Shown one piece after another: positions 2,511 through 54,568 of a stretch of DNA of 64,000 nt. The position numbers were made by a program, and so were the translations under genes. Source of the stretch: an uncultured Pseudomonadales bacterium (GTDB taxonomy: Bacteria > Patescibacteriota > Microgenomatia > UBA1400 > PJMF01); the NCBI GenBank assembly GCA_964455555.1, contig CAYVXV010000002.1:67677-131676 (forward strand). Direction: 5' to 3'. A model generated the notes under the pieces. The model had not been told where the DNA came from. It saw only the letters and a list, made by a program, of their open reading frames with translations, and did not search any database. The stretch's first letter is position 1; every line of letters starts with the position of its first letter.

Positions 2511-2524
2511 TTTTAAATTATAAC

Positions 2525-5772: not shown

Positions 5773-5823
5773 AGCAAAATTATTTTACAGCATTTTCTAG
5801 TTGGCCGGATAGGCTTTATTTAT

Positions 5824-7482: not shown

Positions 7483-7484
7483 TA

Positions 7485-9416: not shown

Positions 9417-9476
9417 GGATTGTTTTGCAGTATAAATTAAGTATATTATAGATGCACCGCAGTTTGGCTGTACACC

Positions 9477-37029: not shown

Positions 37030-38307
37030 ATGGTTGTCAAATCCCTCTTTAAATCCCGCGGCCTCTACCAGTCCTTCATCATTATGGTGGGTTCTTTGGT
37101 GGCTTCCGGGCTCTCGGCTATTTCGCTTATTCTGATCACCCGTCAGCTGGGTCCAGCCAAGTTTGGCGAGTTCTCGGTTGGTTTTGCCATTTTGCTGATC
37201 TTGGTGCGCCTTAATGACCTGGGAATGACCAATGTGGTACAAAAATATGCTGCCAGGGAAGAGGACCGGGCCAAAGCCAACAAAATCTTTTCATTTGCCA
37301 CCCGGGTACGGCTCATCGGCACCCTAGTTATCTGGGTCTCGGGTTTGCTGCTGGCCCGACCTATTGCCGATCTGCTCAACTTCTCCGAACCGCTGATTAT
37401 TTATCTGGCTTTTTTCCTGAGCACCGGCATTTCCATGTACGAGCACATCCAGGCCATGCTGCAATCCCTGCACCGCTTTGGCCAGGCTGCCTGGATTAAT
37501 ATTCTGCAGGCAATTGCTAAGGTTCTCGGGGCAGCGGTGCTCTTCTTTACCGCTTCGCACGCCACAGTACCGATTTTTGCCTGGTATGTCTTTGCCCCTG
37601 CGCTGCCGCTTTTGTTCCTGCCCATTTACTTCCCTAAGTGGGTCAAGATCCGCCTCCAGGATAAATTCTCCGACCAGAAAAAACTGCTCACGGTGATGGC
37701 CGGCCACTCAGCGGTGGCTTTCATTGCTGCCGGTATTATTGAGAATATTGATGTCTTATTTGTTCAGCGCTATCTCAGTACCTATGAAGCCGGTTTGCTA
37801 GGTGGGGTTGGACGGGTGGCTTTGCTATTTTCTATCCTGGCTTATGCCCTGAGCTCGGTTTTAAACCCACGGGTGGCTAAATATACCAATGCCAAGGACC
37901 TCAGGGCTTTCTTTAAAAAAGCCTGGCTAATGGCAGGAGCTGCTATGTTGTTCCTGATTGCTTATCTGCCTTTTTCAAAACTGATCCTGCTTTATACCAT
38001 CGGCGAGCAATACCTACCCGGTCTCGATATCATGAATATTCTGGTGGCTTCATCACTTATGACGGTAGCAGTGGTGCCTTTTATTGCCTTTTTCTTTAGC
38101 ATTGACCGTCCCTGGTATTTTTCAGTCAGCGGCCTCACGCAGCTGGCAATAATCCTGGTTGGAAACGGTGTCTTTGTACCTATTTACGGTCTGGAGGCAG
38201 CTGCTTGGACCAGGCTTTTAGCCAGGGCATTTCTGTTTATTATGACCGCGGGCTTGGCGCTCTATTTTATGCGGGATATTAACGTCAAGAGAGGGGTAAA
38301 TGCTTAA
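37030..38307 (+). CDS. MOP-superfamily polysaccharide transporter (second Wzx-like flippase)
   Basis: 425 aa, about 12 TM helices, with ...ITRQLGPAKFGEFSVGFAI... the PST N-terminal motif. GC about 50%, in sharp contrast to the upstream wzx. Confidence 0.65.
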   Translation: MVVKSLFKSRGLYQSFIIMVGSLVASGLSAISLILITRQLGPAKFGEFSVGFAILLILVRLNDLGMTNVVQKYAAREEDRAKANKIFSFATRVRLIGTLVIWVSGLLLARPIADLLNFSEPLIIYLAFFLSTGISMYEHIQAMLQSLHRFGQAAWINILQAIAKVLGAAVLFFTASHATVPIFAWYVFAPALPLLFLPIYFPKWVKIRLQDKFSDQKKLLTVMAGHSAVAFIAAGIIENIDVLFVQRYLSTYEAGLLGGVGRVALLFSILAYALSSVLNPRVAKYTNAKDLRAFFKKAWLMAGAAMLFLIAYLPFSKLILLYTIGEQYLPGLDIMNILVASSLMTVAVVPFIAFFFSIDRPWYFSVSGLTQLAIILVGNGVFVPIYGLEAAAWTRLLARAFLFIMTAGLALYFMRDINVKRGVNA

Positions 38308-40898: not shown

Positions 40899-41095
40899 TA
40901 GTGTAGCTTTGAGCTTCTTGAAGCCCCTTGGTTTTTATTGATTTGATATGCTTCGGGAATTGCCATCTTGTTCCTCGCCTGGTCTGCTACTTTTTGTGAC
41001 TAACAAGGCAAATTGTCTATGCCCACATAGATTAATTCTACATTATAATGGCTGAAAGCATCAAATACTTACAGTCTATACTGTTCAGGCACCTC

Positions 41096-42613
41096 ATGAT
41101 GTCAAGTCTAAAAAAACACCTCGGAATAATCCTAATTTTGCTTCTAGCCTTCTTTGTCCGCCTGCCGCTGCTGAGCGGATCTCTCTGGATGGACGAAGCT
41201 GCCCAGGTGCTGGAAAGCGAACGGTCTTTTTTTGAACAAACCGATATTGTTCAGGACTTCCAGCCTCCCCTGATGCATTATTTACTACATTTTGCCCTTC
41301 AATTAAATGCTTCTGAGGCCTGGCTCAGGCTAGTTGGGGCTCTTTTGCCTGGGCTGATTACTATCTGGGCTACCTATCAAATTGGCAAGTTATTGTATTC
41401 CAAAAATGTCGGCCTGCTTACTAGCTTGCTGCTGTCCATTTCCTCGTTCCACGTTTTCTTTTCCCAGGAACTTAGACCCTACTCTCTACCAGCCATGTTT
41501 GCCCTGTTGTCCTGGCTGGCACTTCTTCAGTTCAGCCGGGCCAATTACAAAAAAATTATCTCCACACCGCTGGTTATGTTTACCGTTTTTACAATCCTCG
41601 GCTTATATTCTGGCTATCTTTACCCATTTTTGTTCTTCTCACAGTTAGTCTATTTACTGATCTTCTCCAGGCGTTTTGTGCCTCATATAGCCTTTACTGT
41701 CATCATGAGTGCTTTGGCATACCTGCCCTGGCTGCCAATGTTCCTCAGGCAACTTGAGGCAGGAGGACTGGTACGGGCGGAGTTGCCGGGTTGGGAAACC
41801 GCTGTCAGCACTCCTCAGCTTAAATCTTTGCCGCTAACTTTTGGCAAATTTATCTATGGCGTCATGGATCTGGAGTTGTCTGCTTTCTTCTTGGTGAGTT
41901 TAGCTGTGCTTATTGCGCTCGGCGCCGCACTCAAATTTTCCCGGCCGTTTACTAATTGGGTAAGGTTCGGCAAAGACAACCTGGCTTTGGTTGTCTGGCT
42001 GCTCCTGCCTTTTTTTACTGCCTGGATTGTTTCTTTCTTTGTCCCGGTGATTCAGCCGAAACGGCTTATGTTCCTTTTGCCGCCATTTTTGCTGGTCCTC
42101 AGTGTCTTTGCCACGGATTTTTGGAAGGACAACGTTAAATCATTTTTTCTCAAAAATGTTTCAGCCAGCTTATTAGTAGTCTATATATTTATTTCAATTG
42201 TCTCGCTCTACAGCTATTGGACAAAACCAGAGCTGCAAAGAGAAAATTGGCGCTCACTCCAGCAGGAAATTTCCATGAGCTTTCCGCCTAGCCAAACTGT
42301 GGTTGTTTTTTCTTTTCCAGAAGCAATCTCTGCCTGGAGATATTATGACCGCGGAAACTACCCTGTTTATGCCACCGGCTCTCTGCATATTCAAGATGCT
42401 CCAAATTTAACGGCCAGACTTCAACAACTGGATCGTTATGAATATTTGCTGGTTTTTGATTATTTAAGGGATCTTACCGACCCTGAAGACAGGCTTTTAT
42501 GGGAAATAAAAGAGCTGGGTTATCAGGAAACAGCTGTGCTGAACTATCCTAACATTGGCTTCATCAGGGTTTACACCAAAACAGGTGAATTTTTAGCTTC
42601 TGAAATAATTTAA
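41096..42613 (+). CDS. GT-C fold membrane glycosyltransferase (ArnT/PMT-like), paralogue A
   Basis: ...LLSGSLWMDEAAQV... gives the DE motif. Shares long collinear identity with 43685..45160 (for example SSxHxxFSQELRPxSL and PELQRENWR). Start MMSSLKKH at 41096 is preferred over 41048. Confidence 0.6.
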   Translation: MMSSLKKHLGIILILLLAFFVRLPLLSGSLWMDEAAQVLESERSFFEQTDIVQDFQPPLMHYLLHFALQLNASEAWLRLVGALLPGLITIWATYQIGKLLYSKNVGLLTSLLLSISSFHVFFSQELRPYSLPAMFALLSWLALLQFSRANYKKIISTPLVMFTVFTILGLYSGYLYPFLFFSQLVYLLIFSRRFVPHIAFTVIMSALAYLPWLPMFLRQLEAGGLVRAELPGWETAVSTPQLKSLPLTFGKFIYGVMDLELSAFFLVSLAVLIALGAALKFSRPFTNWVRFGKDNLALVVWLLLPFFTAWIVSFFVPVIQPKRLMFLLPPFLLVLSVFATDFWKDNVKSFFLKNVSASLLVVYIFISIVSLYSYWTKPELQRENWRSLQQEISMSFPPSQTVVVFSFPEAISAWRYYDRGNYPVYATGSLHIQDAPNLTARLQQLDRYEYLLVFDYLRDLTDPEDRLLWEIKELGYQETAVLNYPNIGFIRVYTKTGEFLASEII

Positions 42614-43585
42614 GGTTTCTGCTAAACCATCATGAAAATCAATTTGTGGCTCCCAGCCAAGCAACTCTTTGGCTTTTGAGATATCAGGCTGCCTGCGTGT
42701 CGGGTCGTCAAGCGGCAATTCCCGGAAATCCAAATCTGCTTTGCCTTTTCCTCCGCTCGCCTTGAAAATTAGCTCTGCCGTATCTAGGACTGTCAATTCT
42801 TTTGGGTTGCCCAGGTTTACCGTCTCACCTGCCAATCCTTCCTCAGCCAGCAACAACATTAACCCTCTAACCAGATCACTGACAAAACAATAAGACCGTG
42901 TTTGTAAACCGTCACCATAAATTGTCATAGGCTCCTTGTGCAGAGCCTGCATTGCTAAATTGGGGATAACTCGTCCATCACTGGGGTCCATCCGTGGTCC
43001 ATAAGTGTTGAATATCCTGGCCAGCCGGACATCCATATCATAATTTCTGTGAAAAACACCGCAAATTGCCTCTCCCATGCGTTTGGCCTCATCGTAGCAG
43101 GAGCGCGGCCCATTAGGATTAACATTGCCCCAATAGGTTTCCTGTTGAGGATGCTCCTTAGGATCGCCATAGACCTCTGATGTGCTGGCGTACAAAAACC
43201 GGGCAGAAGGGTTTTGGTTGCGAAGATAACTGAGCAAGTTGTGGGTTCCAGCTGTGTTAACCAGATAGGTTGCTACCGGATTTTCTTGATAGCGGGGAGG
43301 GCTGGCCGGAGAGGCTAAATGAAAGACAGCATCCAAATGCTGGCCTCCGGGCAGATAGTGCTCAGTCACAGTTGCGGCATCAGCACGGATAAAAACAAAA
43401 TTATCATGCAAAGATTCGGCAGCCAGGTCATTGTATAAATGTGCAATATTTTCCATTCTGCCGGTGAGCAGATTATCAACACCAATGACCAAAGCACCCG
43501 TCTTAAGAAGCGCATCTACCAGATGTGAGCCAATAAAACCTGCTGCACCGGTCACTAAAATGGTTTTTTTATAAAAATAATCCAT
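42593..43585 (-). CDS. UDP-glucuronate decarboxylase (UXS / ArnA C-terminal domain-like SDR)
   Basis: ILVTGAAGFIGSH, STSEVYGDP, CYDEAKRMGE, RIFNTYGPRM and YGDGLQTRSYCFVSDLV are UXS signatures. ATG at 43585; the upstream ORF-track start is GTG. About 52% GC. Confidence 0.85.
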   Translation of the reverse strand: MDYFYKKTILVTGAAGFIGSHLVDALLKTGALVIGVDNLLTGRMENIAHLYNDLAAESLHDNFVFIRADAATVTEHYLPGGQHLDAVFHLASPASPPRYQENPVATYLVNTAGTHNLLSYLRNQNPSARFLYASTSEVYGDPKEHPQQETYWGNVNPNGPRSCYDEAKRMGEAICGVFHRNYDMDVRLARIFNTYGPRMDPSDGRVIPNLAMQALHKEPMTIYGDGLQTRSYCFVSDLVRGLMLLLAEEGLAGETVNLGNPKELTVLDTAELIFKASGGKGKADLDFRELPLDDPTRRQPDISKAKELLGWEPQIDFHDGLAETLNYFRS

Positions 43586-43684
43586 GGTAGGGAAGTCTTT
43601 AAAATGCCTTTGTCCTAAAGGAGTATTCACGGTATGATTATATGGTTTAAATTTTTAAAGCTCAACTAGCGTTAATCTTTAAAC

Positions 43685-45160
43685 ATGAAAAAAATACTAA
43701 TCCGCAACACACCAGGCTTCAGTTTAGTTCTGATAGCCTTGTTGTTCAGATTGCCGCAACTCAATAGTTCCTTCTGGATGACTGAGGCAACTCAGGCTCT
43801 CGCTTCTCAAATCTCATTCTATGAGCAGTTTGTTGTCGGACAGAGTATTCAACCGCCTTTCTTCTTTCTAGTGTCCCATTTGGCCCAACTTATTTCACAT
43901 CAGGAATGGTGGCTAAGGCTGATCGTGGCCTTGATACCCGGTTTAATTACCGTATTTTTTACTTATAAAATAGGAGAAAAGCTTCATTCCTCCCTAACAG
44001 GCTCACTGGCAGCGCTGTTTCTGGCCACTAGCTCCCTGCATATTTATTTTTCCCAGGAGCTCAGGCCTCATTCGCTAGCTGCCATGCTAGCTTTAGTAAC
44101 CTGGTACTTGCTGGTAGAAAAGAAAATCGGCACCGACACAAGGCGCTACATACTTTTCGGAATCCTATCCGTTCTAGGTGTTTATACCACCTACTTTTAC
44201 ACTTACTTGATGATCGGCCAACTGATTTATGTTTATTTGACAGACAAAAAAGTTTTTCAAAAGGTTTTGATGGTTTTTGGCATCTCTGTCTTAGCCTTCA
44301 TGTCACAGATTCCCATCATGCTTAAACAGCTTGAATATTTGAGGACTATCCGTCAGGAACTCCCATCCATCGAAGAAGTAATTGTCCTGCCGTCACAAAG
44401 CTTCCTGCCATTTTTAATAGGAACATTTGTTTATGGCATTATGGAGTTTGACTTCAACCCAATGCAGAGTTTTCCAGGAATTCTAATAATTGCCATTGCT
44501 GCAATGCTGACCGCCATTAACTATACCTCGATGAAAAAGGAAACTATCAGAATGCTAAAGTTTTCCGCTTCGTCTTTCATAATTCCGGTCTTTGTCCTGC
44601 TATTAATCTCCTTGTTCTTGCCGGTAATACAGCCAAGGGGCGTTCTCTTTTTACTACCGGTTTTCTATCTCTATCTTTCTTCAATTACTACACCATATTT
44701 TAGCCAAACTATTGGCAACCTGAGGGGTGGGTTGGCAGTATTGGTAATCCTCACCATGGCACTGATTAATATTAGGGGAACGGTTGAATACAATATTACA
44801 CCAGAACTGCAGCGCGAAAACTGGCGCCAGCTTTACTTCCGGATTGCAAACAAATACCCAGGAGACAATGCTGCCCTCGTCTTTAAGCTGCCAGAGACGC
44901 CGGCTGCCATAAAATGGTACGACAAAAATTCAGAATATAAAGTTGTAACTCTCGAAAACCTACATGTAGATTATGTGCCGGACTTGGAACAGCGGCTTTC
45001 ACAAATTTCAGATTATGACACAGTCTTGGTTTTTAGTTATTTTGAATACTTAACAGATCCAGAGGACAAGGTAGGTCATACTATAGAAGACCTGGGATAC
45101 CGCAATTCCGGAAAATTCTTCCAACCAATAATTGGAGATGTGCGCATTTATACCCGCTAA
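43685..45160 (+). CDS. GT-C fold membrane glycosyltransferase (ArnT/PMT-like), paralogue B
   Basis: ...NSSFWMTEATQA... and collinear similarity to 41096..42613. Confidence 0.6.
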   Translation: MKKILIRNTPGFSLVLIALLFRLPQLNSSFWMTEATQALASQISFYEQFVVGQSIQPPFFFLVSHLAQLISHQEWWLRLIVALIPGLITVFFTYKIGEKLHSSLTGSLAALFLATSSLHIYFSQELRPHSLAAMLALVTWYLLVEKKIGTDTRRYILFGILSVLGVYTTYFYTYLMIGQLIYVYLTDKKVFQKVLMVFGISVLAFMSQIPIMLKQLEYLRTIRQELPSIEEVIVLPSQSFLPFLIGTFVYGIMEFDFNPMQSFPGILIIAIAAMLTAINYTSMKKETIRMLKFSASSFIIPVFVLLLISLFLPVIQPRGVLFLLPVFYLYLSSITTPYFSQTIGNLRGGLAVLVILTMALINIRGTVEYNITPELQRENWRQLYFRIANKYPGDNAALVFKLPETPAAIKWYDKNSEYKVVTLENLHVDYVPDLEQRLSQISDYDTVLVFSYFEYLTDPEDKVGHTIEDLGYRNSGKFFQPIIGDVRIYTR

Positions 45161-45180: not shown

Positions 45181-46329
45181 ATGAAGCTAGGTATTGATAT
45201 TACCCCCGTGCTGTACAAGAGAGGAGTTTCGCGCTACACCAGCAACTTAGTTGCAGGATTAATTAAACACACCAACCTAAGCCTCCATTTATACGGTTCA
45301 AGCTTCCGCCAACATCAAGAGCTTGTCAAAGCTGCTGAGAACTTTCAGGCTTTTTCTACAAATAAAGTTAAAACAACTCTGCAGCACTATCCGCCAAGCC
45401 TACTAAGCCTGCTTTGGCGGGCCAACATAAACCCCATAGCTTCAACAGCCCCCAAGTTAGACGTTTTTCATTCCTGGGATTGGCTCCATCCTCCAGATAC
45501 AACTTTTCCTTTAGTTTCAACTATTCATGATTTAGCTATTTTAAAATTTCCCGAAACAGCCAATCCAAAAATTCTCAAAATGCATCAGCGTTCCTGGGAT
45601 GTGCTTAAGAAGAAACAGGCCCACATCATAGCCGTCAGCCGTTCAACAAAAAATGACATAGTAGAACTGCTCGGCTACCCCAGGTACTTGGTCCATGTAA
45701 TTTATGAAGCTTTGCCTACAGAAGTAAAAAACGTATCGGATCAGATGACCGAAGAGATCTATGAAGAAACTAAAATAAAGCTATTGCTGGATAAGCCCTT
45801 TGTATTTTTTGTCGGCACCCGCGAACCTAGAAAGAATCTCAAAAAACTAATCAAGGCCTGGGAGCCATTGGCTTCTCATTTTGATTTACTCATAGCCGGC
45901 AACACAGGCTGGGACGAATCAGAGAAACTGGATACCATTACCCTTCAGGAGAAGGGCTTAAGATTCCTGGGCAGGGTCAGCGACCAAGAATTGGCCGTAC
46001 TTTACTCCGAGGCAGCAGTTTTTGCCTATCCTTCGTTGTACGAGGGTTTCGGCCTGCCAATTTTAGAGGCGTTTAATTACGGCACTCCGGTAGTTACTTC
46101 AAATAATTCTGGAATGCTCGAGGTAGCAGGTAATGCTGCTGAACTAGTGGATCCAGAGTCAGTTGACAGCATCCGCGCAGGCTTGGAGAAAGTTTTGGGA
46201 GAAGGCTTGAGCGAACAACAAAAACGCCTGCAGCGAATGATCATCCGCCAACAGATGTTTAGTTGGCAAACAGTAGCCAATGAGACTCACCGGGTTTACC
46301 GGAAAGCTGTAGAAGACTTTAAGAATTAA
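45181..46329 (+). CDS. GT4 family glycosyltransferase
   Basis: ...FAYPSLYEGFGLPILEAFNYGTPVVTSNNSGMLEVAG... (EX7E). Confidence 0.8.
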   Translation: MKLGIDITPVLYKRGVSRYTSNLVAGLIKHTNLSLHLYGSSFRQHQELVKAAENFQAFSTNKVKTTLQHYPPSLLSLLWRANINPIASTAPKLDVFHSWDWLHPPDTTFPLVSTIHDLAILKFPETANPKILKMHQRSWDVLKKKQAHIIAVSRSTKNDIVELLGYPRYLVHVIYEALPTEVKNVSDQMTEEIYEETKIKLLLDKPFVFFVGTREPRKNLKKLIKAWEPLASHFDLLIAGNTGWDESEKLDTITLQEKGLRFLGRVSDQELAVLYSEAAVFAYPSLYEGFGLPILEAFNYGTPVVTSNNSGMLEVAGNAAELVDPESVDSIRAGLEKVLGEGLSEQQKRLQRMIIRQQMFSWQTVANETHRVYRKAVEDFKN

Positions 46330-46342
46330 ACAAAGGCAGTTT

Positions 46343-47524
46343 ATGGCGCATTTAGCAATCGACGGAAACGAAGCCAACGTTGCCAACCGGGTCGGCAGCA
46401 ATGTCTATGCTTACGAACTACTTACCGCCCTGGAAAAACTGATCGGGAAAAAGAAGGGCCTTGAGGTCACAGTGCTGCTTCGGTCTCAACCCCTGCATGA
46501 CATGCCCCCCGTTCGCGATGGTTGGAGCTATCAGGTATTAACACCTGGAAAATTTTGGACTCAGTGGGCTTTGCCGCTGCACTTATTCAATCACCGCAAT
46601 AAATACGACCTACACTTTAGCCCGGGGCATTATGCACCTCATAGTTCACCCATTCCCTTTGTATGCACAGTCATGGATACGGCTTACTTGGATTACCCAA
46701 ACCACTTTCGGTCTGCAGATCTTTTCCAACTGAAAATCTGGACAAAATTGGCAGTTTCAAAAGCTGCCAAAATTATTGCGATAAGTGAGGCAACAAAAGA
46801 TGATGTCATCCGGCATTATCACCGGCAGCCCGATGATGTAGTGGTTGCTTACCCTGCTTTTGAGTTAAAGAGAAAGAACCTTGTTGGACAGGAGGCCAAA
46901 GACTTCCTGGAGAGCAAGAAGATTACCGAGCCGTACTTGTTGTTTGTCGGCACCATCCAGCCACGGAAAAATATAATTGCTCTTGTTGAGGCCTTTGAAA
47001 TTTTTACCAGAATGGCAGCCAGCCGGACCTTGAAACAAAAAAGGTCGGGCCGCAAGCGGGCAAAAACCCAAGCAGCCAAACTGGTTTTAGCAGGAAAGAC
47101 CGGCTGGCTATCCGGGGAAACTTTAGAGCGGATTGATAACTCTCCTCTCAAAAACAGAATTGTCATAACCGGCTTTGTCACAGAGGCGCAAAAACAGCTT
47201 TTATATAAGAATGCTTTTGCCAGCGCTCTTGTCGGTCTTCATGAGGGGTTCGGTATTCCGCCGCTTGAGTCTATGGCACTCGGAACCCCAGTCCTGGTTT
47301 CCAATACAACCAGTCTGCCAGAGGTAGTAGGAGATGCAGGTTTTATGGCCAATCCACTGGATCCGCAGGATATCGCTGAAAAAATCTGGGAAGTTTACAC
47401 CCTGAGCGCAAAGGAAAAAGCCCTCAGTCGGAAAAGGGGCAAGGAGCAGGCGGCCAACTTTTCTTGGGAAGAATCAGCAAAAACAATCCTGAATACTCTG
47501 GAAGAGTTGATAGAAAAACAATAA
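46343..47524 (+). CDS. GT4 family glycosyltransferase
   Basis: ...LVGLHEGFGIPPLESMALGTPVLVSNTTSLPEVVG... (EX7E). Confidence 0.8.
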   Translation: MAHLAIDGNEANVANRVGSNVYAYELLTALEKLIGKKKGLEVTVLLRSQPLHDMPPVRDGWSYQVLTPGKFWTQWALPLHLFNHRNKYDLHFSPGHYAPHSSPIPFVCTVMDTAYLDYPNHFRSADLFQLKIWTKLAVSKAAKIIAISEATKDDVIRHYHRQPDDVVVAYPAFELKRKNLVGQEAKDFLESKKITEPYLLFVGTIQPRKNIIALVEAFEIFTRMAASRTLKQKRSGRKRAKTQAAKLVLAGKTGWLSGETLERIDNSPLKNRIVITGFVTEAQKQLLYKNAFASALVGLHEGFGIPPLESMALGTPVLVSNTTSLPEVVGDAGFMANPLDPQDIAEKIWEVYTLSAKEKALSRKRGKEQAANFSWEESAKTILNTLEELIEKQ

Positions 47525-47548: not shown

Positions 47549-48076
47549 GTGACCAAACACGCAACAACACTTATCAGCATCGACCCTGGTTATGACAGGA
47601 TCGGCTGGGCCATTGGCACACTAACCGGCACTAAATATATCTTGACCGCCTGCGGCTGCATTCAGACAGACCGCAAGGCAGAAATTTTCAGCCGCTACCT
47701 CCATTTTTCTGATGAGTTGTCTAAAATTATTCAAAAGTATTCTCCCTCTGCCGCTGCCATTGAAAGCATTTTCTTTTCCAAAAACCGCACCACAGCCATA
47801 AAGGTGAGTGAGGCGAGAGGTGTAATCATTGCAGCCTTGCTTCAAAACGGCGTCACCATTCATGAGTATAACCCCAGCGAAATAAAGCTTGCGGTTACCG
47901 GATATGGCAATGCAGACAAAATGGCCGTAGAAAAAATGGTGAGGATGCAAACGAATATAAAAGAGGGAAAAATTCTTGATGATGCCATCGATGCAATAGC
48001 TGTAGGTATGACTCATGCAGTTACTGCTCACATGCGCCAGGCCAAAGACGCCCTCAACAAAGCAAGTAGTTCGTAG
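47549..48076 (+). CDS. ruvC: Holliday junction resolvase RuvC (GTG start)
   Basis: ...LISIDPGYDRIGWAIG... is the RNase H-fold RuvC N-terminus; 175 aa; immediately upstream of ruvA and ruvB. Confidence 0.85.
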   Translation: MTKHATTLISIDPGYDRIGWAIGTLTGTKYILTACGCIQTDRKAEIFSRYLHFSDELSKIIQKYSPSAAAIESIFFSKNRTTAIKVSEARGVIIAALLQNGVTIHEYNPSEIKLAVTGYGNADKMAVEKMVRMQTNIKEGKILDDAIDAIAVGMTHAVTAHMRQAKDALNKASSS

Positions 48077-48088
48077 TATGCTTTCTTT

Positions 48089-48670
48089 ATGTTCGCATTT
48101 CTTTCCGGTACTCCGGTAATCCAAAAAAACAAACTGATTATGCTGGTTAATGGGGTTGGCTACGATGTTGACGTTAGCACAAGAACACTGCTTGCCGCTA
48201 CCAATGCAGACAGCTTTTCCCTTTACATCCACACCCACGTTCGGGAGGACAGAATTGAGCTTTATGGTTTCCAAACTATTGAGGCTAAGGAAATATTTAA
48301 CCTACTAATCGATGTATCAGGTGTCGGGCCTAAAACTGCACTAGCCATAACCGAAAGGGGCAGCCAAGCCCTGATTGAAGCAGTGCAGCAAGCCGATGTT
48401 TCTTTTTTTACCAAGGTTCCCAGGGTGGGCAAAAAGTCAGCCCAAAAAATTATCATTGAGTTAAAATCAAAACTTGGAGGCCTCAAAGAGTTGGACCTAG
48501 GACCGCAAACCCCTCTTCAAGAAGAGATTTCAGATGCATTGCTTTCACTGGGATTTGCCAAAACAGAGGTTTCTGCGGTAGTCAACAAGTTAGATGCCGC
48601 CGGCCTGACCTTGGAATCCGGCCTGCAGCAAGCCATTAAAGAACTCGGTTTAGCTAGGGCAAAGTCATGA
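48089..48670 (+). CDS. ruvA: Holliday junction DNA helicase subunit RuvA
   Basis: ...LVNGVGYDVDVS...LYGFQTIEAKEIFNLLIDVSGVGPKTALAI... gives the OB fold and HhH motifs of RuvA. Confidence 0.85.
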   Translation: MFAFLSGTPVIQKNKLIMLVNGVGYDVDVSTRTLLAATNADSFSLYIHTHVREDRIELYGFQTIEAKEIFNLLIDVSGVGPKTALAITERGSQALIEAVQQADVSFFTKVPRVGKKSAQKIIIELKSKLGGLKELDLGPQTPLQEEISDALLSLGFAKTEVSAVVNKLDAAGLTLESGLQQAIKELGLARAKS

Positions 48671-49677
48671 ACAACCTAGATATTCCTTCATCTCCCACCT
48701 TAAGCCCGGAAGAGGAGGTATTATTTACCTCACTTAGGGCCAGTGATTGGGCAGAATTTTTTGGCCAAAATCAAATAAAGAAATCACTTCAAATTGCTAT
48801 ACAGGCAGCGCTGCAACGAAGTGAGTCTATGGATCATGCTTTGCTCTATGGCCCTCCGGGATTGGGAAAAACAACCCTTACTCATCTGATTGCCAAAGAA
48901 CTAGGAGTAAATATCCGAGTTACATCGGGCACTGCTCTGACCAAAACCGGCGACCTAGCCGCTATCCTAACCAACCTAGAACCCGGTGATATTTTATTTA
49001 TTGATGAAATTCATCGCCTGCCCAAAAATGTAGAGGAAACCCTTTATCCGGCCATGGAGGATTTTGCCCTGGATATTGTTATCGGTAAGGGTCCGTCTGC
49101 CAGAACCATTCGCTTAGACCTGCCTAAATTTACTTTGATTGGAGCCACCACCCGGTTTGGGTTGCTCGCCGGCCCTTTCCGCGACCGCTTCGGCTTGGTT
49201 CACCGGCTTCAATATTATTCACCGAAAGCCTTGGGCACAATCCTTACCAAAGGTGCTGAAAAACTGTCTATAGATGTCAGCCCTCAGGCTGCAGCCGAGA
49301 TTGCCACCCGTTCACGCGGCACCCCTCGGATTGCCCTTAAACTGCTTAAGCGGGTTCGCGATTATGTTCAGGTAGAAGGTAGAACCCGCATAGAAGAAAA
49401 CGACGTAGAAAATGCTTTGGCCATGTTTGCAATCGATAAAAAAGGCTTAAGTGATTCCGACCGACATTTTCTGATGCAGATTATTGAGAAGCACCGCGGT
49501 GGGCCTGTTGGCATTTCTACGATTGCCGCCACCTTGAATGAGGATTCTCTTACTATAGAAGAGGTTTTTGAGCCATATCTGCTGCAGCTTGGTTTAATCC
49601 GCCGCACCCCTCAGGGAAGAATAATTACAAAAGCAGGCTACGAACACGTTGGTGTCAAATATCCAGAGCAAAAATAA
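48667..49677 (+). CDS. ruvB: Holliday junction ATP-dependent DNA helicase RuvB
   Basis: Walker A (...LLYGPPGLGKTTLTHLIA...), Walker B (...ILFIDEIHRL...) and sensor motifs. Confidence 0.9.
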   Translation: MNNLDIPSSPTLSPEEEVLFTSLRASDWAEFFGQNQIKKSLQIAIQAALQRSESMDHALLYGPPGLGKTTLTHLIAKELGVNIRVTSGTALTKTGDLAAILTNLEPGDILFIDEIHRLPKNVEETLYPAMEDFALDIVIGKGPSARTIRLDLPKFTLIGATTRFGLLAGPFRDRFGLVHRLQYYSPKALGTILTKGAEKLSIDVSPQAAAEIATRSRGTPRIALKLLKRVRDYVQVEGRTRIEENDVENALAMFAIDKKGLSDSDRHFLMQIIEKHRGGPVGISTIAATLNEDSLTIEEVFEPYLLQLGLIRRTPQGRIITKAGYEHVGVKYPEQK

Positions 49678-49745: not shown

Positions 49746-50357
49746 ATGACTGAAACTTCGCTCACCGGCCGCCGCTCTCTGCCAGAAAAAATTGTTAATC
49801 GTCTAAGTACTATCTGGCTGGAGTTCGTCACTGGCATCTTGTGGTGGTGTGTAGGATTTATACCACTTCATATTCTTAGAAGGTTTTTTTACCGACTGGC
49901 CGGCTTAACCTTCGGCAAAGGCAGCACAATTCACATGATGGCCAGGATTTATGATCCCCGAAATATCATCATCGGCAACGACACCATCATTGGCGAACGG
50001 GCTTCGCTTGATGGCCGTAAACAATTGAAAAACTCACAGGGAGGCCTTTATATCGGCAATCATGTTGACATTGCCTCAGAAGTTATGATTTGGACCAGCG
50101 AACATGACTTGTCAGATCCGGATATGAGGCCGATTGAAGAAAAAGTAATAATTGAAGACTATGTCTTTATTGGGCCGAGAGCAATTATCCTGCCTGGGGT
50201 TACTGTGGGAAGGGGAGCTGTTGTTGCTGCAGGAGCTGTAGTTACCAAAGATGTTGAGCCATTTACTATAGTGGGAGGAGTGCCAGCTGAAGAAATCGGC
50301 AAACGCAAAAATACCAACCCAACTTACACTTTAGGCAGGGCCCGCTTATTTCAATAG
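49746..50357 (+). CDS. Hexapeptide-repeat sugar O-acetyltransferase (WcaF-like) with an N-terminal TM segment
   Basis: ...IGNDTIIGERASLDG...IGNHVDIASEVMIW...IGPRAIILPGVTVGRGAVVAAGAVVTKDV... are LbH repeats. Confidence 0.7.
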   Translation: MTETSLTGRRSLPEKIVNRLSTIWLEFVTGILWWCVGFIPLHILRRFFYRLAGLTFGKGSTIHMMARIYDPRNIIIGNDTIIGERASLDGRKQLKNSQGGLYIGNHVDIASEVMIWTSEHDLSDPDMRPIEEKVIIEDYVFIGPRAIILPGVTVGRGAVVAAGAVVTKDVEPFTIVGGVPAEEIGKRKNTNPTYTLGRARLFQ

Positions 50358-50364
50358 GATTGTT

Positions 50365-51387
50365 ATGAAGAAAAAAGACACCCTTCTTTCGATAATTATT
50401 ATTTCCTACAGCACTGCAGATTTAACTATTCAAACCCTCGAATCGGTTGTCAGGGATCTGAATCGCTCAATGTTTCTTCATTCTGCCGCTGAAATCATTG
50501 TAATAGACAACAATTCTAAAGATGATTCCGTTAAGAAACTTAAAAGCTTTTCGAAAAATAATTCCGGTCTAAGTTTTAAATTAATTGAGAATTCAAAAAA
50601 CAATGGTTTTGCAGCTGCCAATAATCAGGGAATTGCAAAAGCTAAGGGCAAGTACCTGCTTTTGCTCAACTCGGATACCTTGGTTCAAGCCGGTGCTCTT
50701 GAAAGGATGGTCATGAGCTTTGAGGTCCTGGAGCCTGATCACGCAGCAAGCGTCCTAAACGCCTCAACCAAAAAACTAGACAAGCTCGGTATTTTGGCAG
50801 CCACACTTTTGAACTGGGATGGCTCATACCAACCCCAAGGTGGCAGCAGACCTTCGCTAATAAGTTTGGCTTGCCACATGTTCTTTTTTGACGACATCCC
50901 ACTGCTTGGCAGGTTATTGCCCTCAACTCAACATACCGGCAATAATTCAAGAAATTTCAGTCTGAACGCATACGAAGAAAACCAGCCGCTTAGGCCCAAG
51001 GCTTGGGTTGGTGGAACCGCCATGATGATTAGAAGGGCAGTAATAGATGAGATCGGAGATCTTGATGCCAACCTCTTTATGTACGGGGAGGACATGGAGT
51101 TCTGCCTTCGGGCCCGCAAGCATCACTGGGATATTGCTGAACACCCCACGGCCAGAGTCACCCACTTTCGAAATGCCAGCTCAAGCCGGGAAAAAGCCTT
51201 GATAGGAGAATTTAAAGGCTATTACTACATTTGGGCCAAGCACAAACCTCACTGGGAACAGCCATTTTTAAGGTTTATTTTGCAAATGGGCGCTCTCCTT
51301 AGAATGGTCTTTTTTGATACAATCAGGAAGGACAAAGACAAGGCTGCAGCTTACCGCTTGGCATTTAATGAAGTACCAAAGAAATAG
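50365..51387 (+). CDS. GT2 family glycosyltransferase
   Basis: ...LSIIIISYSTADLT...IVIDNNSKDDS...FAAANNQG...LLLNSDT... match GT2 motifs. Confidence 0.75.
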   Translation: MKKKDTLLSIIIISYSTADLTIQTLESVVRDLNRSMFLHSAAEIIVIDNNSKDDSVKKLKSFSKNNSGLSFKLIENSKNNGFAAANNQGIAKAKGKYLLLLNSDTLVQAGALERMVMSFEVLEPDHAASVLNASTKKLDKLGILAATLLNWDGSYQPQGGSRPSLISLACHMFFFDDIPLLGRLLPSTQHTGNNSRNFSLNAYEENQPLRPKAWVGGTAMMIRRAVIDEIGDLDANLFMYGEDMEFCLRARKHHWDIAEHPTARVTHFRNASSSREKALIGEFKGYYYIWAKHKPHWEQPFLRFILQMGALLRMVFFDTIRKDKDKAAAYRLAFNEVPKK

Positions 51388-51389
51388 TT

Positions 51390-53102
51390 ATGAGAAAAAA
51401 GACACAAAGCTGGATGAGCTGGCTGGACAATAATATATTACTGATTATCGGCGGCTTTCTTTTAGCCTTCATTCCTCTTTATCCAAAACTGCCTCTCTTT
51501 GAAGCTATCCCTGGTTACATTGTGCGGGTCAGAATTGAGGATGTACTGATTCTCTTTGCCTCATTCATCTGGTTTATTCAGGTGCTCAGAAAAAAAGTCT
51601 CCTGGAAGACTCCTCTTACTCCGGTAATCTTAGCCTATGCCGCAGTCGGCCTGCTCTCTACTATTTCTGCAGTCTTAGTTACCAAAACAGTACCCCTAAG
51701 CCCGCTTCATATCGGCAAGTCCCTGCTGCATTATTTCCGCTACCTGGAGTATTTTTCGCTCTTCTTTATCCTATCAGCAGCTGTCCGGAGAAAACGTGAC
51801 CTGAAAATCCTCCTTGTGGTAATCACTGTTACTTTGGTGAGTGTTGGCCTTTATGGCTATGGACAAAAATATTTCTACTGGCCGGTGTACTCAACCATGA
51901 ACCGAGAGTTCAGTAAGGGCATCCGCCTTTACCTAACAGAGCATGCCAGGGTTCAATCCACCTTTGGCGGCCATTATGACCTGGCAGCATACTTGGTAGT
52001 AATTTTGCCATTTTTACTATCGCTGGTTTACAGTATCAAAAACCGGAAACTGAGTTTCGCCACCTTCTTAGCCTTTTTTATTGGACTTTGGCTTTTAATC
52101 ACCAGTGCATCCAGAGCTTCGTTCGCTGCCTTTTTGGGCGGGGCAGTTGCAGTCGTTTTATTTTTTGCCTGGCAGAAAAGCAACCTAAAGAAAAAAATTT
52201 GGTATGCATTTTCAAGAATATTAGGCATTTTACTGCTCACATTTGTCATGTTAATTGCTTTTGGCGACGACATGTATGAGCGGTTGCTGCAAAGCCTTGA
52301 AGGCTACCCTGAGGTTCACAGCGCCTACATAGAGGTTGAAGATGTGGTCGAACAAATAGTCTACGATTATGTTCCTGCAGTTATTGATCTGCTCAGCTTT
52401 AAACCTGAAAAACCTGCCAATTCTCTCTCTACCGAAGAAGCTGAGATTCTGGTTGCCTCTGACCAAAGGCCTTCAGAGGTCAATCCCAAAGACACACCCA
52501 GCGACGTCTACGTAATTGTTCCCGATATTGTAAAAGTAGCTACAAAATCTGCAACTGGAGAGATAGAAATTGTTGAGGTAGAAACTGAACGGGTCTACTC
52601 GGAGAACGCCCTACGCTATGGACTTTCCTTGGCGATCAGACTGGATGAGCTCTGGCCAAAAGCCATTCAAGGTTTCATGCGCAATCCTCTTCTGGGCAGC
52701 GGCTACGCCACCCTCACAAAAGATACCGCCGGGCACTTTACAGAAGCCGAAAGCACTGACAACAACTACTTGAGGGTTTTGGGTGAAACCGGCCTGCTTG
52801 GATTTATTACCTTTTACGGCACAATTGCTTTTGCAATGTATTGGGCTTGGCTTCTCAATAAAAAATACTTCAAAAAGAACGCCTTATATAGTGCACTTGC
52901 AATAGGCTATTTGGGGGCTAGTATTGGGCTGCTTCTAAACGCCGTCTACATTGATGTTTATGCTTCGTCAAAGGTTGCGCTGGTTTATTGGGCTCTTACC
53001 GGAATTCTAATGGCCATAGCAATGACAGAGCTGCCAGAGTCAAAAAAAATGACAGACAATTTGAGTTTGCAGAATATTAAAAAATGGCTGCTGAAAAAAT
53101 GA
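51390..53102 (+). CDS. O-antigen ligase/polymerase-family (Wzy_C domain) polytopic membrane protein with a long C-terminal extension
   Basis: ...LITSASRASFAAFLGG... resembles the conserved SRG/SRAS loop of the O-antigen ligase family. About 10 TM helices plus a soluble acidic segment and two further TM helices. Confidence 0.5.
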   Translation: MRKKTQSWMSWLDNNILLIIGGFLLAFIPLYPKLPLFEAIPGYIVRVRIEDVLILFASFIWFIQVLRKKVSWKTPLTPVILAYAAVGLLSTISAVLVTKTVPLSPLHIGKSLLHYFRYLEYFSLFFILSAAVRRKRDLKILLVVITVTLVSVGLYGYGQKYFYWPVYSTMNREFSKGIRLYLTEHARVQSTFGGHYDLAAYLVVILPFLLSLVYSIKNRKLSFATFLAFFIGLWLLITSASRASFAAFLGGAVAVVLFFAWQKSNLKKKIWYAFSRILGILLLTFVMLIAFGDDMYERLLQSLEGYPEVHSAYIEVEDVVEQIVYDYVPAVIDLLSFKPEKPANSLSTEEAEILVASDQRPSEVNPKDTPSDVYVIVPDIVKVATKSATGEIEIVEVETERVYSENALRYGLSLAIRLDELWPKAIQGFMRNPLLGSGYATLTKDTAGHFTEAESTDNNYLRVLGETGLLGFITFYGTIAFAMYWAWLLNKKYFKKNALYSALAIGYLGASIGLLLNAVYIDVYASSKVALVYWALTGILMAIAMTELPESKKMTDNLSLQNIKKWLLKK

Positions 53103-54568
53103 AAAAGGTTTTCTTTAAGCACGGCTTGCTTTTGATTATTATCTTCGCCGCACTTGCGGTGCGGCTGTACCGCGTACATTATCCGCTTTTGGACTGGCAT
53201 AGTTGGAGGCAAGCCGACACGGCCTCGGTAACACAAAACTATCTGAATTACGGCATCGATCTGCTTAGGCCCACCTATCACGACCTGTCAAATATTCCCA
53301 ACGGTCTTGAAAACCCCGAGGGCTACCGGATGGTTGAGTTTCCGATTATTAATGCCGGCATTGCCAGTTTGATCAAAATATTACCAGCCCTGCCTTTAGT
53401 GCCAACCAGCCGAGTAGTTTCAATTCTCTTTTCCTTGGGAACTCTGGTATCTTTGTTTTTTCTTGTAAAAGATCTTTCCGGCAAGAAAGTGGCTTATATT
53501 ACAGCTGCTGTTTTTGCCTTTCTGCCTTATTCTGTCTACTACTCCCGAGTAATACTCCCCGAACCGCAGGTGCTTTGCTTCTCTGTATTCTCACTGATGG
53601 CTTTTAACAATTGGCTCAAGCACAAAAGAGCGAGTTGGTATATTTTATCGGTTATTAGCCTGGCTTTGGCATTTTTATTAAAGCCTTTTGTCGGTTTCTT
53701 TGCCCCGGCTTATCTGGCATTATCATGGTTTGCCTTTAAAAAGAAACTTTTCCTAAACCCATGGCTATATCTCTACAGCCTTCTAGCTGTAGCCCCATTT
53801 TTTGCTTGGAGAAACTGGATTACTCAGTTCCCTGAGGGCATCCCTTCCTCTGACTGGCTCTTTAACGGCAACGGCATCAGACTGCGGCCTGCTTGGTTTA
53901 GATGGCTGGGTTATGAACGCCTGACCAAACTAATGCTAGGGTTTACCGGCCTTGTTTTCATTCCCTTTGCTTTTGCCAAAGTGTCTAAAGATACCATTTT
54001 TTATATGGCTTGGTGGATCGGTGCCGCAGCATATTTGGTGGTTATAGCGACAGGCAACGTACAGCATGATTATTATCAGGCTCTGCTTATACCAATTCTT
54101 TCAGCTACAGTTGGAAAAGGGGTAGTGGCACTTTACCAGCAGGCTAAAAGTCTTTGGGAAAAAAAGTTTCCCCACCTGCGGCTCTATGGGCACTTGGCTT
54201 CATTCGCTCTGGTAAGCCTTCTTTTTATTCTGATGCTTTTTTTCAGTTGGCAGAACGTAAAAGGTAACTTTAATGTGAACAACTGGGAATACTACAGGGC
54301 AGGGCAAGTTGTTCAGGATAAAACACCTGAAGATGCATTGGTTATAGCCCCACAAATGGGTGATACGGCTTTTTTGTTCCAAACCAACAGAAAAGGCTGG
54401 CCGATAGGCGGAGGTATTGATGAAAAAATCCGCTTTGGAGCAACTCATTACGTCAGTGCCAGCTTTGATAAGGAGGCTCAGGAGCTTTCAGAAAAATATT
54501 TTGTAATTGAGAAAACAGAAGAGTACGTCCTCATTGACCTCACTACTCGTAGAGAGGCGCAACCATGA
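53099..54568 (+). CDS. GT-C fold membrane glycosyltransferase, GT39/GT83-like
   Basis: ...LLDWHSWRQADTASV... after TM1 is the conserved acidic loop. Polytopic. Start MKKVFFKH at 53099 (ATGA overlap with the upstream stop). Confidence 0.65.
   Translation: MKKVFFKHGLLLIIIFAALAVRLYRVHYPLLDWHSWRQADTASVTQNYLNYGIDLLRPTYHDLSNIPNGLENPEGYRMVEFPIINAGIASLIKILPALPLVPTSRVVSILFSLGTLVSLFFLVKDLSGKKVAYITAAVFAFLPYSVYYSRVILPEPQVLCFSVFSLMAFNNWLKHKRASWYILSVISLALAFLLKPFVGFFAPAYLALSWFAFKKKLFLNPWLYLYSLLAVAPFFAWRNWITQFPEGIPSSDWLFNGNGIRLRPAWFRWLGYERLTKLMLGFTGLVFIPFAFAKVSKDTIFYMAWWIGAAAYLVVIATGNVQHDYYQALLIPILSATVGKGVVALYQQAKSLWEKKFPHLRLYGHLASFALVSLLFILMLFFSWQNVKGNFNVNNWEYYRAGQVVQDKTPEDALVIAPQMGDTAFLFQTNRKGWPIGGGIDEKIRFGATHYVSASFDKEAQELSEKYFVIEKTEEYVLIDLTTRREAQP

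Follow-up and report, generated by a model that had tools for sequence, protein, structure and literature searches.

A canonical and a derived GT-C paralogue flanking a UDP-xylose synthase gene in a putative Microgenomates envelope glycan module

The 64-kb stretch of DNA analysed here (the window) carries two paralogous GT-C glycosyltransferase genes, A and B, on either side of an oppositely oriented UDP-xylose synthase (UXS) gene. The locus is probably a local version of an envelope glycan module of Microgenomates, with A as the canonical copy and B as a derived paralogue. We read it as an uncommon form of a cell-surface sugar pathway that is in other respects ordinary, not as an Arn-type pathway.

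Paralogue A (ORF 41048/41096..42613, + strand) represents the canonical type within a PMT_2-type family specific to Patescibacteria. The length of its database protein (P0001, 504 aa) would put the start at 41099. The gene converges with UXS, the two 3' ends overlapping by 21 nt, and lies off the ancestral slot. That slot is occupied by paralogue B (43685..45160, + strand), a diverged copy in which the first-loop Asp-Glu motif is without its Asp. The preliminary description of this DNA called the two ORFs collinear paralogues, and BLASTP indeed matches them along their whole length (490 residues, 36% identity, E = 5e-104); both carry the quoted motifs WMDEA/WMTEA, SSxH..FSQELRP.SL, PELQRENWR and LVF.Y...TDPED. 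Their placement in the GT-C superfamily also holds. Both match a profile of the ArnT/PMT group, scoring 34.7 (A) and 35.9 (B) bits against Pfam PMT_2, above its gathering cut-off of 26.1 bits; the predicted structure of A has a GT-C fold (pLDDT 93.7), and the GT-C helix layout is still present in that of B (pLDDT 87.6).

The gene between them (42593..43585 from the first ATG, - strand; the longest ORF begins at a GTG at 43630) encodes an SDR protein, a UDP-glucuronate decarboxylase of the UXS type. Its best solved relative is human UXS1 (2b69; 315 bits, E = 5e-93, ~51% identity over 305 aligned residues), the next-best family scores 161 bits, and STSEVYG, YDEAKR and QTRS are all present. The earlier assignment to a UXS-type decarboxylase, and not to a non-decarboxylating SDR family, is therefore borne out, but the accompanying label 'ArnA-C-terminal-like' is misleading, as ArnA scores ~75 bits. 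The sequence strongly indicates that the enzyme would convert UDP-glucuronate to UDP-xylose. No UDP-glucose dehydrogenase gene was found in the 64-kb window, whose sole nucleotide-sugar dehydrogenase belongs to the UDP-ManNAc/GlcNAc type. UXS and B diverge from a 99-bp spacer (43586..43684) with promoter-like sites, which are consensus matches only, on both strands (- strand, 43665-43637, 10/12 matches; + strand, 43610-43638).

Synteny was compared across 80 species-representative Patescibacteria (Microgenomates) loci and nine others. In the 80 genomes the block order is UXS, GT-C, GT4, GT4, ruvCAB, acetyltransferase, GT2, Wzy_C-like and PMT_2. A UXS orthologue (53-64% identity) lies upstream of the family GT-C in 55/61 informative loci (48 divergent, 7 co-directional; median gap 205 bp), so the link between UXS and GT-C is not accidental. 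The first GT4 gene is directly 3' of the GT-C in 69/71 loci, and ruvC is found downstream in 61/62. The same block follows B in the window, all on the + strand. The GT4 pair reported directly downstream of B is assigned as such by Pfam (GT4a, 45181..46329, Glycos_transf_1 and Glyco_transf_4; GT4b, 46343..47524, also from synteny). Next are ruvC-ruvA-ruvB (47549..49677; from Pfam labels of the orthologues in loci L001, L003, L004 and L007) and, each placed by synteny as well as by its family match, a hexapeptide-repeat (WcaF-like) O-acetyltransferase (49746..50357; NCBIfam WcaF, E = 1.4e-24), a GT2 glycosyltransferase (50365..51387; Pfam Glycos_transf_2), a Wzy_C (O-antigen ligase/polymerase-like) membrane protein (51390..53102; Pfam Wzy_C, 36.2 bits) and, at the block end, a second, distinct PMT_2-type GT-C (53084..54568; Pfam PMT_2, 51.3 bits). 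A MOP-family (Wzx-like) flippase gene (37030..38307, + strand; Pfam Polysacc_synt) has homologues upstream of UXS in many related loci.

None of the 80 species-representative loci has two copies of the family GT-C, each having one, and the A + UXS + B arrangement is unique among ~90 loci. An arrangement seen once, in a locus of mosaic appearance, could be a meaningless product of chance local rearrangement or of misassembly beside UXS, and the contigs of loci L006 and L008 end directly after the A-type gene. We find this scarcely credible. A and B are full-length ORFs, A retains 44/44 near-invariant residues, and its GC and GC3 match those of neighbouring genes; no flanking repeats or mobile-element marks were found around the locus. 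Both proteins are recorded on a single 164,957-bp NCBI contig and, being only 36% identical, are not a collapsed or duplicated assembly repeat.

The two paralogues differ sharply in their conservation. At the 44 near-invariant columns of the family (those >=97% conserved), changes number 0 in A and 13 in B, and 20 in P0122, the nearest B orthologue (55% identity; there is no other close one); the canonical mean is 0.45. All 13 positions changed in B are also changed in P0122. In the W[LM]DEA motif Glu is present in 171/171 sequences and Asp in 169/171, the exceptions being B (Thr) and P0122 (Leu); among 142 more representatives of 50% clusters, 132/136 retain Asp and 136/136 Glu. The changes in B include D33T, D54S, K251T and R323G, and E34 and the SQELR and QRENW motifs are kept. 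B sits on a long tree branch within a fast-diverged clade that has one other lineage only, and no further B-type cluster turned up when 1.84 billion representatives were searched exhaustively. The earlier proposal of 'two specialised GT-C enzymes' thus does not describe a conserved design, since no species-representative locus has two copies and B is without the Asp and 12 other residues.

Among canonical loci, GT-C identity could be fitted as 0.98 x neighbour identity - 11.8 (1687 locus pairs, residual sd 2.8). Measured against these loci, A evolves normally (z = -0.10), whereas B (z = -3.6) and the B-type gene of locus L004 (z = -4.7) do not; B compared with the L004 gene gives z = -0.9. At 55% identity B-type ORFs remain intact, and every one of the 4 nucleotide changes that separate the B-type genes of loci L004 and L005 is synonymous. 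These comparisons indicate that B-type genes are still under purifying selection since a burst of change. The burst would have occurred in the common ancestor of B and the one other lineage, with ordinary constraint afterwards. Besides the Asp of Asp-Glu, it would have cost B another Asp in the first loop, a conserved Lys and the Arg of the Lys-Arg pair. Such losses followed by ordinary constraint mark B as a derived paralogue, predicted either to catalyse its reaction differently or less well, or to act on another acceptor. Two other readings of B were rejected: a decaying pseudogene, because of the constraint since the burst and the intact B-type ORFs, and a second equivalent enzyme, because 13/44 near-invariant positions are changed, including the Asp of Asp-Glu. 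A keeps all family-invariant residues and the normal family rate, so it most likely performs the canonical polyprenyl-phosphate-sugar transferase reaction predicted for the family. A is closer to P0002, P0003 and P0004 than neighbouring genes predict (z = +3.2, +3.1 and +2.3), a pattern that lateral acquisition or a mosaic locus would explain as readily as an old duplication.

Among GT-C enzymes, Asp-Glu (or Asp-Asp) in the first loop is the signature of the active site (PMC7801869, PMC8698208, PMC11127046). D33/E34 would be equivalent to the catalytic pair of ArnT/Pmt1, judging from where they lie, just after TM1, from how conserved they are and from a weak match in hhalign (12.6% probability). 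Loss of the Asp is no proof of inactivity, as the Streptomyces coelicolor Pmt variant D113N is active and first-loop motif mutants of the Mycobacterium tuberculosis Pmt retain some activity (PMC8698208). B could nevertheless be a non-catalytic partner of A, for example in acceptor binding or as a scaffold, within a heterodimer like Pmt1-Pmt2 or EmbA-EmbB; GT-C paralogue dimers are known, and these two solved complexes are among the fold matches. The positions of catalytic type are replaced differently in B and P0122 (D33 by T or L, D54 by S or V, R323 by G or A), and other derived residues (G223L, W233I, K251T) are shared and fixed in both, as might be expected of a pseudoenzyme that retains its fold in the model and is under purifying selection. 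We hold such a role to be improbable, as B keeps E34, SQELR and QRENW and, in the L004/L005 lineage, a B-type gene fills the slot with no detectable A-type partner. No A-type copy lies within 8 kb of the B-type gene in those loci, and no database match has the identity expected of one, which suggests that B-type proteins may work alone.

The preliminary description read the trio as an Arn-like lipid-linked pentose route. In such a route a DPM1/ArnC-like GT2 would load the sugar of UDP-xylose, or a 4-keto-pentose derivative, onto polyprenyl phosphate, and after flipping A and B would use it outside the cell as specialised transferases for two different acceptors or positions. GT-C enzymes use lipid-phosphate donors (PMC11127046), and purifying selection on B after its burst fits a working enzyme of this kind. 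The part of this reading that stands is the UXS/GT-C adjacency in 55/61 loci, mainly divergent with a gap of ~200 bp, together with loci L077 and L080, where a DPM1/PpgS-like GT2 lies exactly between UXS and GT-C and would complete an ArnA/ArnC/ArnT-like triad. The window itself has two small DPM1-like GT2s, both candidate polyprenyl-phosphate sugar synthases with matches under the family cut-offs. One (19683..20360, + strand; NCBIfam PpgS, E = 2.2e-25; AglJ, E = 2.7e-20) is the closest ArnC analogue in the window and is 39-42% identical to the GT2s of L077 and L080; the other (11129..11842, - strand) matches AglJ (E = 7.6e-23) and PpgS (E = 3.5e-17). The part that does not stand is the local gene set: no ArnC-like GT2 or ArnB-like aminotransferase adjoins the A-UXS-B trio, a DPM1-like GT2 is adjacent in just 2/~55 loci, and those of the window are 21-30 kb off, the ArnC analogue being 21 kb away. 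A UXS-type enzyme, unlike ArnA, reduces the keto intermediate. UXS is equally tightly linked to two GT4s and a GT2, for which UDP-xylose could be a direct substrate. The open-access literature searched yielded no description of a bacterial polyprenyl-phosphate xylopyranose donor, and known lipid-linked pentofuranose donors come from PRPP, not from UDP-pentose (PMC11127046). Since, in addition, B is without the Asp of its first-loop motif and a single copy is the rule, we consider this route doubtful.

On the preferred reading of a local envelope glycan module, the family GT-C would be an integral-membrane transferase of GT-C fold, normally a single gene divergent from UXS, which, by analogy with enzymes of the same fold, would transfer a polyprenyl-phosphate-carried sugar to an acceptor on the membrane's outer face. 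The module would build or decorate a surface glycan or glycoprotein predicted to contain xylose, and xylose could enter it by either of two candidate routes, being carried to the GT-C on a lipid phosphate or transferred straight from UDP-xylose by the GT4 and GT2 enzymes.

Of the known systems, the Arn pathway (ArnA, ArnB, ArnC, ArnT; Ara4N on lipid A) likewise combines a decarboxylating UDP-GlcA SDR with a GT-C-fold membrane transferase, and ArnC-like GT2s occur elsewhere in the window and between UXS and GT-C in L077 and L080. It differs in that the SDR here is of UXS type and has no formyltransferase domain, ArnB, ArnD and ArnE/F genes are not adjacent, and the GT-C has no NCBIfam ArnT match and no PDB sequence match. 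To our knowledge Patescibacteria have no lipid A, so the acceptor must differ from that of Arn. The SDR itself resembles human/bacterial UDP-xylose synthase (UXS1; PDB 2b69, 4gll) across the whole catalytic domain, retaining the Thr-Ser-Glu, Tyr-x-x-x-Lys and Arg motifs, and is likewise a single-domain enzyme of ~330 aa. It differs in having no N-terminal membrane anchor and in being paired in the genome with a GT-C instead of a Golgi xylosyltransferase. GT39 protein O-mannosyltransferases (Pmt1/Pmt2/Pmt4 and bacterial Pmt) share with the GT-C family here the PMT_2 match and the Asp-Glu motif directly following TM1; they function as paralogue dimers, and databases call members of this family 'glycosyltransferase family 39'. 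Identity to them is just 11-14%, however, and the GT-Cs here have no Pfam PMT (PF02366) match, no MIR domain and a distinct C-terminal alpha/beta domain with the QRENW and TDPxD motifs. In three-component systems (GtrA/B/C; GT136; CsbB/GtcA/YfhO), a lipid-phosphate sugar synthase, a flippase and a GT-C decorate a glycan outside the membrane, GT136 with pentofuranose (Kelly et al. 2024, PMC11127046). The window, with >6 GT-Cs, two DPM1-like GT2s and MOP flippases, fits this logic, but the three components do not form one cluster, a PRPP-type synthase is absent, and the implied pentose is xylopyranose from UDP-xylose, an undocumented donor in those systems. EmbA/EmbB/EmbC and other GT-C paralogue sets are, like A and B, neighbouring and functionally diverged, but all Emb proteins retain the catalytic Asp-Asp pair, whereas B has lost its Asp.

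The three open reading frames that the preliminary description had placed here were confirmed, as was the paralogy of the outer two. Paralogue A (41048/41096..42613, +) corresponds to a database protein of 504 aa (P0001), which puts its start at 41099. It is followed by the decarboxylase gene (42593..43585, -, counted from the first ATG) and by paralogue B (43685..45160, +). A and B align over their full length with 36% identity (E = 5e-104), carry all the motifs proposed to be common to them, and in profile searches against the PMT families each scores above the Pfam PMT_2 threshold. Pfam also recognises the two GT4 genes said to lie downstream of B (GT4a, 45181..46329; GT4b, 46343..47524). 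A and the decarboxylase gene are convergent, with a 21-nt overlap of the stop-proximal ends on opposite strands (42593-42613), which leaves no space for a terminator between them. The decarboxylase gene and B are divergent, with a 99-bp spacer that contains promoter-like sites on both strands.

The decarboxylase had been called both UXS-type and ArnA-like. The first description is upheld, as the nearest solved relatives are UXS enzymes and not 4,6-dehydratases, epimerases or ArnA. Against all PDB sequences the top four matches are human UXS1 entries (315 bits, E = 5e-93), with about 51% identity across 305 aligned residues; GalE-like proteins come next at 161 bits, followed by dTDP-glucose 4,6-dehydratases at about 100-118 bits and ArnA at about 75 bits. 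The motifs GAAGFIGS (the GxxGxxG NAD site), ASTSEVYGDP (Thr-Ser-Glu), YDEAKR (Tyr-x-x-x-Lys) and QTRSY (Arg) align with their UXS1 counterparts, and we take their catalytic roles to be those generally attributed to them in UXS and ArnA. Since UXS1 is by far the best match and these motifs align, the gene is assigned as a UXS-type UDP-xylose synthase, which is its predicted activity. The top NCBIfam match is a dTDP-glucose dehydratase model, but at 148.6 bits it falls well under the cut-off of 365 and NCBIfam apparently holds no UXS model, so this match is no argument for a dehydratase. The likeness to ArnA extends to the decarboxylation of UDP-glucuronate, which is predicted for this enzyme, and not to sequence, which is far closer to UXS1. 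An ArnA C-terminal decarboxylase, which would release the UDP-4-keto-pentose, is ruled out by the NCBIfam ArnA score of 79.9 bits against a cut-off of 777, by the low PDB score, and by the architecture of the protein, a single domain of 330 aa that has no fused N-terminal formyltransferase domain.

The setting of these genes was compared in nine loci fetched through homologues of A and B and in 80 from species-representative genomes; the window's own genome was not among the scan results. The gene order is nearly constant: UXS, the family GT-C, GT4a, GT4b, ruvC-ruvA-ruvB, a hexapeptide acetyltransferase, a GT2, a Wzy_C-like protein and a second PMT_2 protein. Among the 61 loci with at least 2.5 kb of upstream sequence, 55 have a UXS orthologue (53-64% identical) upstream of the family GT-C, divergent in 48 and co-directional in 7, with a median gap of 205 bp. 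GT4a directly follows the GT-C in 69 of 71 loci and ruvC lies downstream in 61 of 62, while two family GT-C copies were found in none of 80. From these counts, the link between UXS and the GT-C is real and old, and its conserved state is a single GT-C. Two specialised GT-C enzymes, as had been envisaged, are not the conserved design: a second copy is absent from all 80 loci, and A and B are not equivalent, B being without the motif Asp.

In the window the ruvC-ruvA-ruvB genes (47549-49677) sit inside the glycan block, between the GT4 pair and the acetyltransferase, GT2 and Wzy_C genes. Such stable embedding of housekeeping genes is unusual in a glycan cluster and suggests that the block is core rather than variable. 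The contigs of two loci with the closest relatives of A (L006 and L008) end about 100 bp past the GT-C gene, perhaps because the assembly broke at a variable or repeated region immediately beyond it. Many of the 80 genome records carry the Patescibacteria-type block under titles such as 'uncultured Pseudomonadales', 'Vitreimonas sp.', 'Limisphaerales', 'Methylococcaceae' and 'TM6', and these look like misassignments or placeholders.

Homologues of A number more than 400, nearly all from Patescibacteria. Those with names belong to Pacebacteria, Woesebacteria or 'Paceibacterota', and many are automatically named 'glycosyltransferase family 39'. A has a polytopic membrane domain with GT-C architecture, and the C-terminal domain of the family is small and alpha/beta. 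Membership of the protein O-mannosyltransferases (GT39) was rejected: GT39 enzymes have an N-terminal PMT domain (PF02366) and a luminal MIR domain, whereas in the Pfam scan A and B match only PMT_2 (PF13231) and have neither. Membership of ArnT (GT83), the acceptor of which is lipid A phosphate, also failed at the sequence level, with no matching NCBIfam model and no PDB sequence match. The NCBIfam scan gave no meaningful match for A or B and holds no model for the family. The family profile matched no PDB sequence at E <= 1, including the solved GT-Cs; its sole match at E <= 10, PdaC, is spurious. The window's other PMT/PMT_2 protein also had no match in the PDB. The family thus comprises GT-C-fold enzymes that are not specifically ArnT.

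The family carries a near-invariant W-[LM]-D-E-A motif in the first extracytoplasmic loop, 10-12 residues past the first transmembrane helix, which in A reads W-M-D33-E34-A. Asp occupies the position of D33 in 169 of 171 and in 132 of 136 family sequences, and Glu that of E34 in all. Other invariant residues include D54, K251, D462, the K322-R323 pair and the SQELR and QRENW motifs. The hallmark of the GT-C active site is a pair of acidic residues in the first loop, Asp-Glu or Asp-Asp, as in ArnT (D55/E56), Pmt1 (D77/E78) and EmbA (D281/D282) (PMC7801869, PMC8698208, PMC11127046). From position and conservation, D33/E34 would be the equivalent of this catalytic pair. In hhalign, WMDEA aligned with the Asp-Glu pair of a window protein that matches Pfam PMT, in a weak match; alignments of the family with a 532-aa neighbour and with the downstream PMT_2 protein were uninformative.

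B occupies the ancestral slot, divergent from UXS and with GT4a next, and has lost the Asp of this motif while keeping the Glu. The pair is Thr-Glu in B and Leu-Glu in P0122, its sole close relative (55% identical), which is a single copy in the same slot of two related loci (L004 and L005). A word-indexed search for B-type genes returned one orthologue cluster. When 1.84 billion cluster representatives were searched exhaustively with HMMER, nothing beyond B's own cluster exceeded 40% identity except a P0122-type fragment, and no close relative emerged from a scan of JGI metagenomes. Both proteins are on long branches, with root-to-tip distances of 0.417 (B) and 0.460 (P0122) against 0.335 +/- 0.029 for the family. 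At the 44 columns with conservation of at least 97% among 169 canonical members, A has no changes, B has 13 and P0122 has 20, compared with a canonical mean of 0.45. Thirteen positions are altered in both B and P0122, among them D33 (T/L), D54 (S/V), Y129, G223, W233, K251 and R323 (G/A). The structural model of B has the same helix layout (pLDDT 87.6) and is less confident in the first loop and over residues 211-240, where the motifs are altered.

B is not decaying. Both B-type genes are intact at 55% identity, and the only differences between two population variants are 4 synonymous nucleotide changes. A regression fitted to 1687 pairs of canonical loci gave GT-C identity = 0.98 x mean neighbour identity - 11.8 (residual sd 2.8). 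Compared with canonical loci, A lies on this line (z = -0.10) while B and the L004 B-type protein fall well below it (z = -3.6 and -4.7), and B compared with the L004 protein does not (z = -0.9). This pattern indicates that the gene changed in a burst in the ancestor shared by the B-type lineage and has since evolved under normal constraint. No A-type copy was found within 8 kb of the B-type gene in the P0122 lineage, nor was one detectable among database homologues, so B-type proteins can apparently act alone, which tempers a reading of B as a dead enzyme. That reading is tempered further because some Pmt variants altered in the first-loop acidic motif retain activity (PMC8698208).

A groups with three A-like homologues (P0002, P0003 and P0004) that are 53-55% identical to it, each filling the canonical slot in its own genome. 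It is closer to them than the divergence of UXS or GT4a predicts (z = +3.2, +3.1 and +2.3), and the flippase upstream is also like those of their genomes. Of the candidates for an A-type copy in the P0122 lineage, those closest to A (these three and P0006) all occupy the canonical slot of other lineages. A recent duplication or mobile insertion is ruled out, as A has no flanking DNA repeats and no anomaly in GC or GC3. The history of A fits an old duplication with later loss of the A copy in the P0122 lineage; it also fits lateral gain of a canonical copy by a lineage in which the resident gene was already divergent. Just upstream of A is a 155-aa ORF (40431-40898, -) with no Pfam match, in which a C-terminal LysM-like stretch can be seen by eye (YEIVPGDGFFLIAKKV...IHPGNKLNIP). 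At the thresholds used, no similarity was detected between it and its positional counterpart in L004, an ORF of 194 aa.

GT-C enzymes take their sugar from lipid-phosphate donors, and the pentose route proposed earlier therefore needs a polyprenyl-phosphate xylose synthase. The window encodes two small DPM1/PpgS/AglJ-like GT2s (11129-11842 and 19683-20360), 21-30 kb distant. In two other loci a small DPM1/PpgS-like GT2 lies exactly between UXS and the GT-C, co-directional with the latter (L077, 2883-3596; L080, 9256-9933), and these proteins are 39-42% identical to that encoded at 19683-20360. In L077 and L080 the three genes make up the full triad of decarboxylase, lipid-phosphate GT2 and GT-C. 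Elsewhere the gap holds other genes, in several related genomes an ORF of 272-290 aa (L025, 9046-9918; L033, 6297-7115; L036, 1178-2041; L047, 765-1583) that to the eye seems to begin with a ribbon-helix-helix DNA-binding motif and to continue as a sugar-phosphate nucleotidyltransferase, possibly an unusual fusion and a candidate regulator-enzyme. UXS is linked as tightly to GT4a, GT4b and the GT2 as to the GT-C, and these enzymes could take UDP-xylose directly. The lipid-linked pentofuranose donors known so far derive from PRPP (PMC11127046). The open-access literature searched contained no report of a lipid-phosphate xylopyranose donor and nothing on UDP-xylose in Patescibacteria. No UDP-glucose dehydrogenase is encoded in the window, its sole nucleotide-sugar dehydrogenase (26961-28232) being of the UDP-ManNAc/GlcNAc type and part of a WbpABDE-like set.

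Entry of xylose by a lipid-linked route is in our estimate rather unlikely. The fuller proposal, which we consider unlikely, takes the UXS/GT-C pair as the mark of a lipid-linked xylopyranose route, new to the literature, that extends across Microgenomates. In it polyprenyl phosphate would be loaded from UDP-xylose, and a surface glycan or protein would be xylosylated by the GT-C on the outer side of the membrane; B in this lineage would be a variant lacking the motif Asp, with new chemistry or as a non-catalytic partner, and canonical A would have been retained or re-acquired. If xylose does ride a lipid carrier, the donors of GT-C enzymes would include a new type; if not, what remains is a glycan cluster of an ordinary kind in which one lineage has a duplication.

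The window as a whole is a very large glycan region, with at least six PMT_2 GT-Cs, several unannotated polytopic proteins, many GT4 and GT2 enzymes, two MOP flippases, a Wzy_C protein, the WbpABDE-like set and a PglC-like phosphoglycosyltransferase. Large polytopic membrane proteins are abundant (801-13641, 15433-16635, 18058-19590, 38300-39898 and 53084-54568). Besides A and B there are four PMT_2 proteins, one PTPS_related protein, one PIG-V-like protein and five ORFs of 479-643 aa without a Pfam match, and the polytopic proteins could be a large extracytoplasmic glycosyltransferase repertoire. The stretch at 26961-30929 and 33612-34667 holds the WbpA/WbpB/WbpD/WbpE-like set, made up of the nucleotide-sugar dehydrogenase, a GFO/IDH/MocA oxidoreductase, a hexapeptide acetyltransferase and a DegT aminotransferase; with a UDP-GlcNAc 2-epimerase-like gene nearby, this set suggests synthesis of a 2,3-diacetamido uronic acid. 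GC content beside this set, at 30-36 kb, is 0.32, compared with 0.38-0.48 in the rest of the window.

Most Patescibacteria (CPR) have yet to be cultivated, and next to nothing is known of the chemistry of their envelopes. In dozens of their species UXS comes firmly tied to a family-specific GT-C and to an unvarying glycosyltransferase set in which ruvCAB is embedded, which points to a core surface glycan, probably containing xylose, and supplies concrete enzymes for expression. Two features are unusual: the exceptionally conserved UXS/GT-C pairing in a block that embeds ruvCAB and, in this genome only, a canonical copy beside a diverged resident copy without the motif Asp. For the GT-C active site the two copies amount to a natural experiment, as A keeps every invariant residue and B lacks the hallmark Asp yet is under selection; the activities of the two would tell whether this residue is dispensable in the family. 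The Arn-like interpretation is partly supported, with the UXS-type decarboxylase beside GT-C paralogues as the part that stands. Of the components of an Arn-like system, decarboxylase and GT-C genes are neighbours in 55 of the 61 loci, only two loci have a DPM1-like GT2 between them, and no dedicated small flippase was identified. The block is best read as an uncharacterised, phylum-specific glycan module made of known kinds of parts and not as an Arn pathway.
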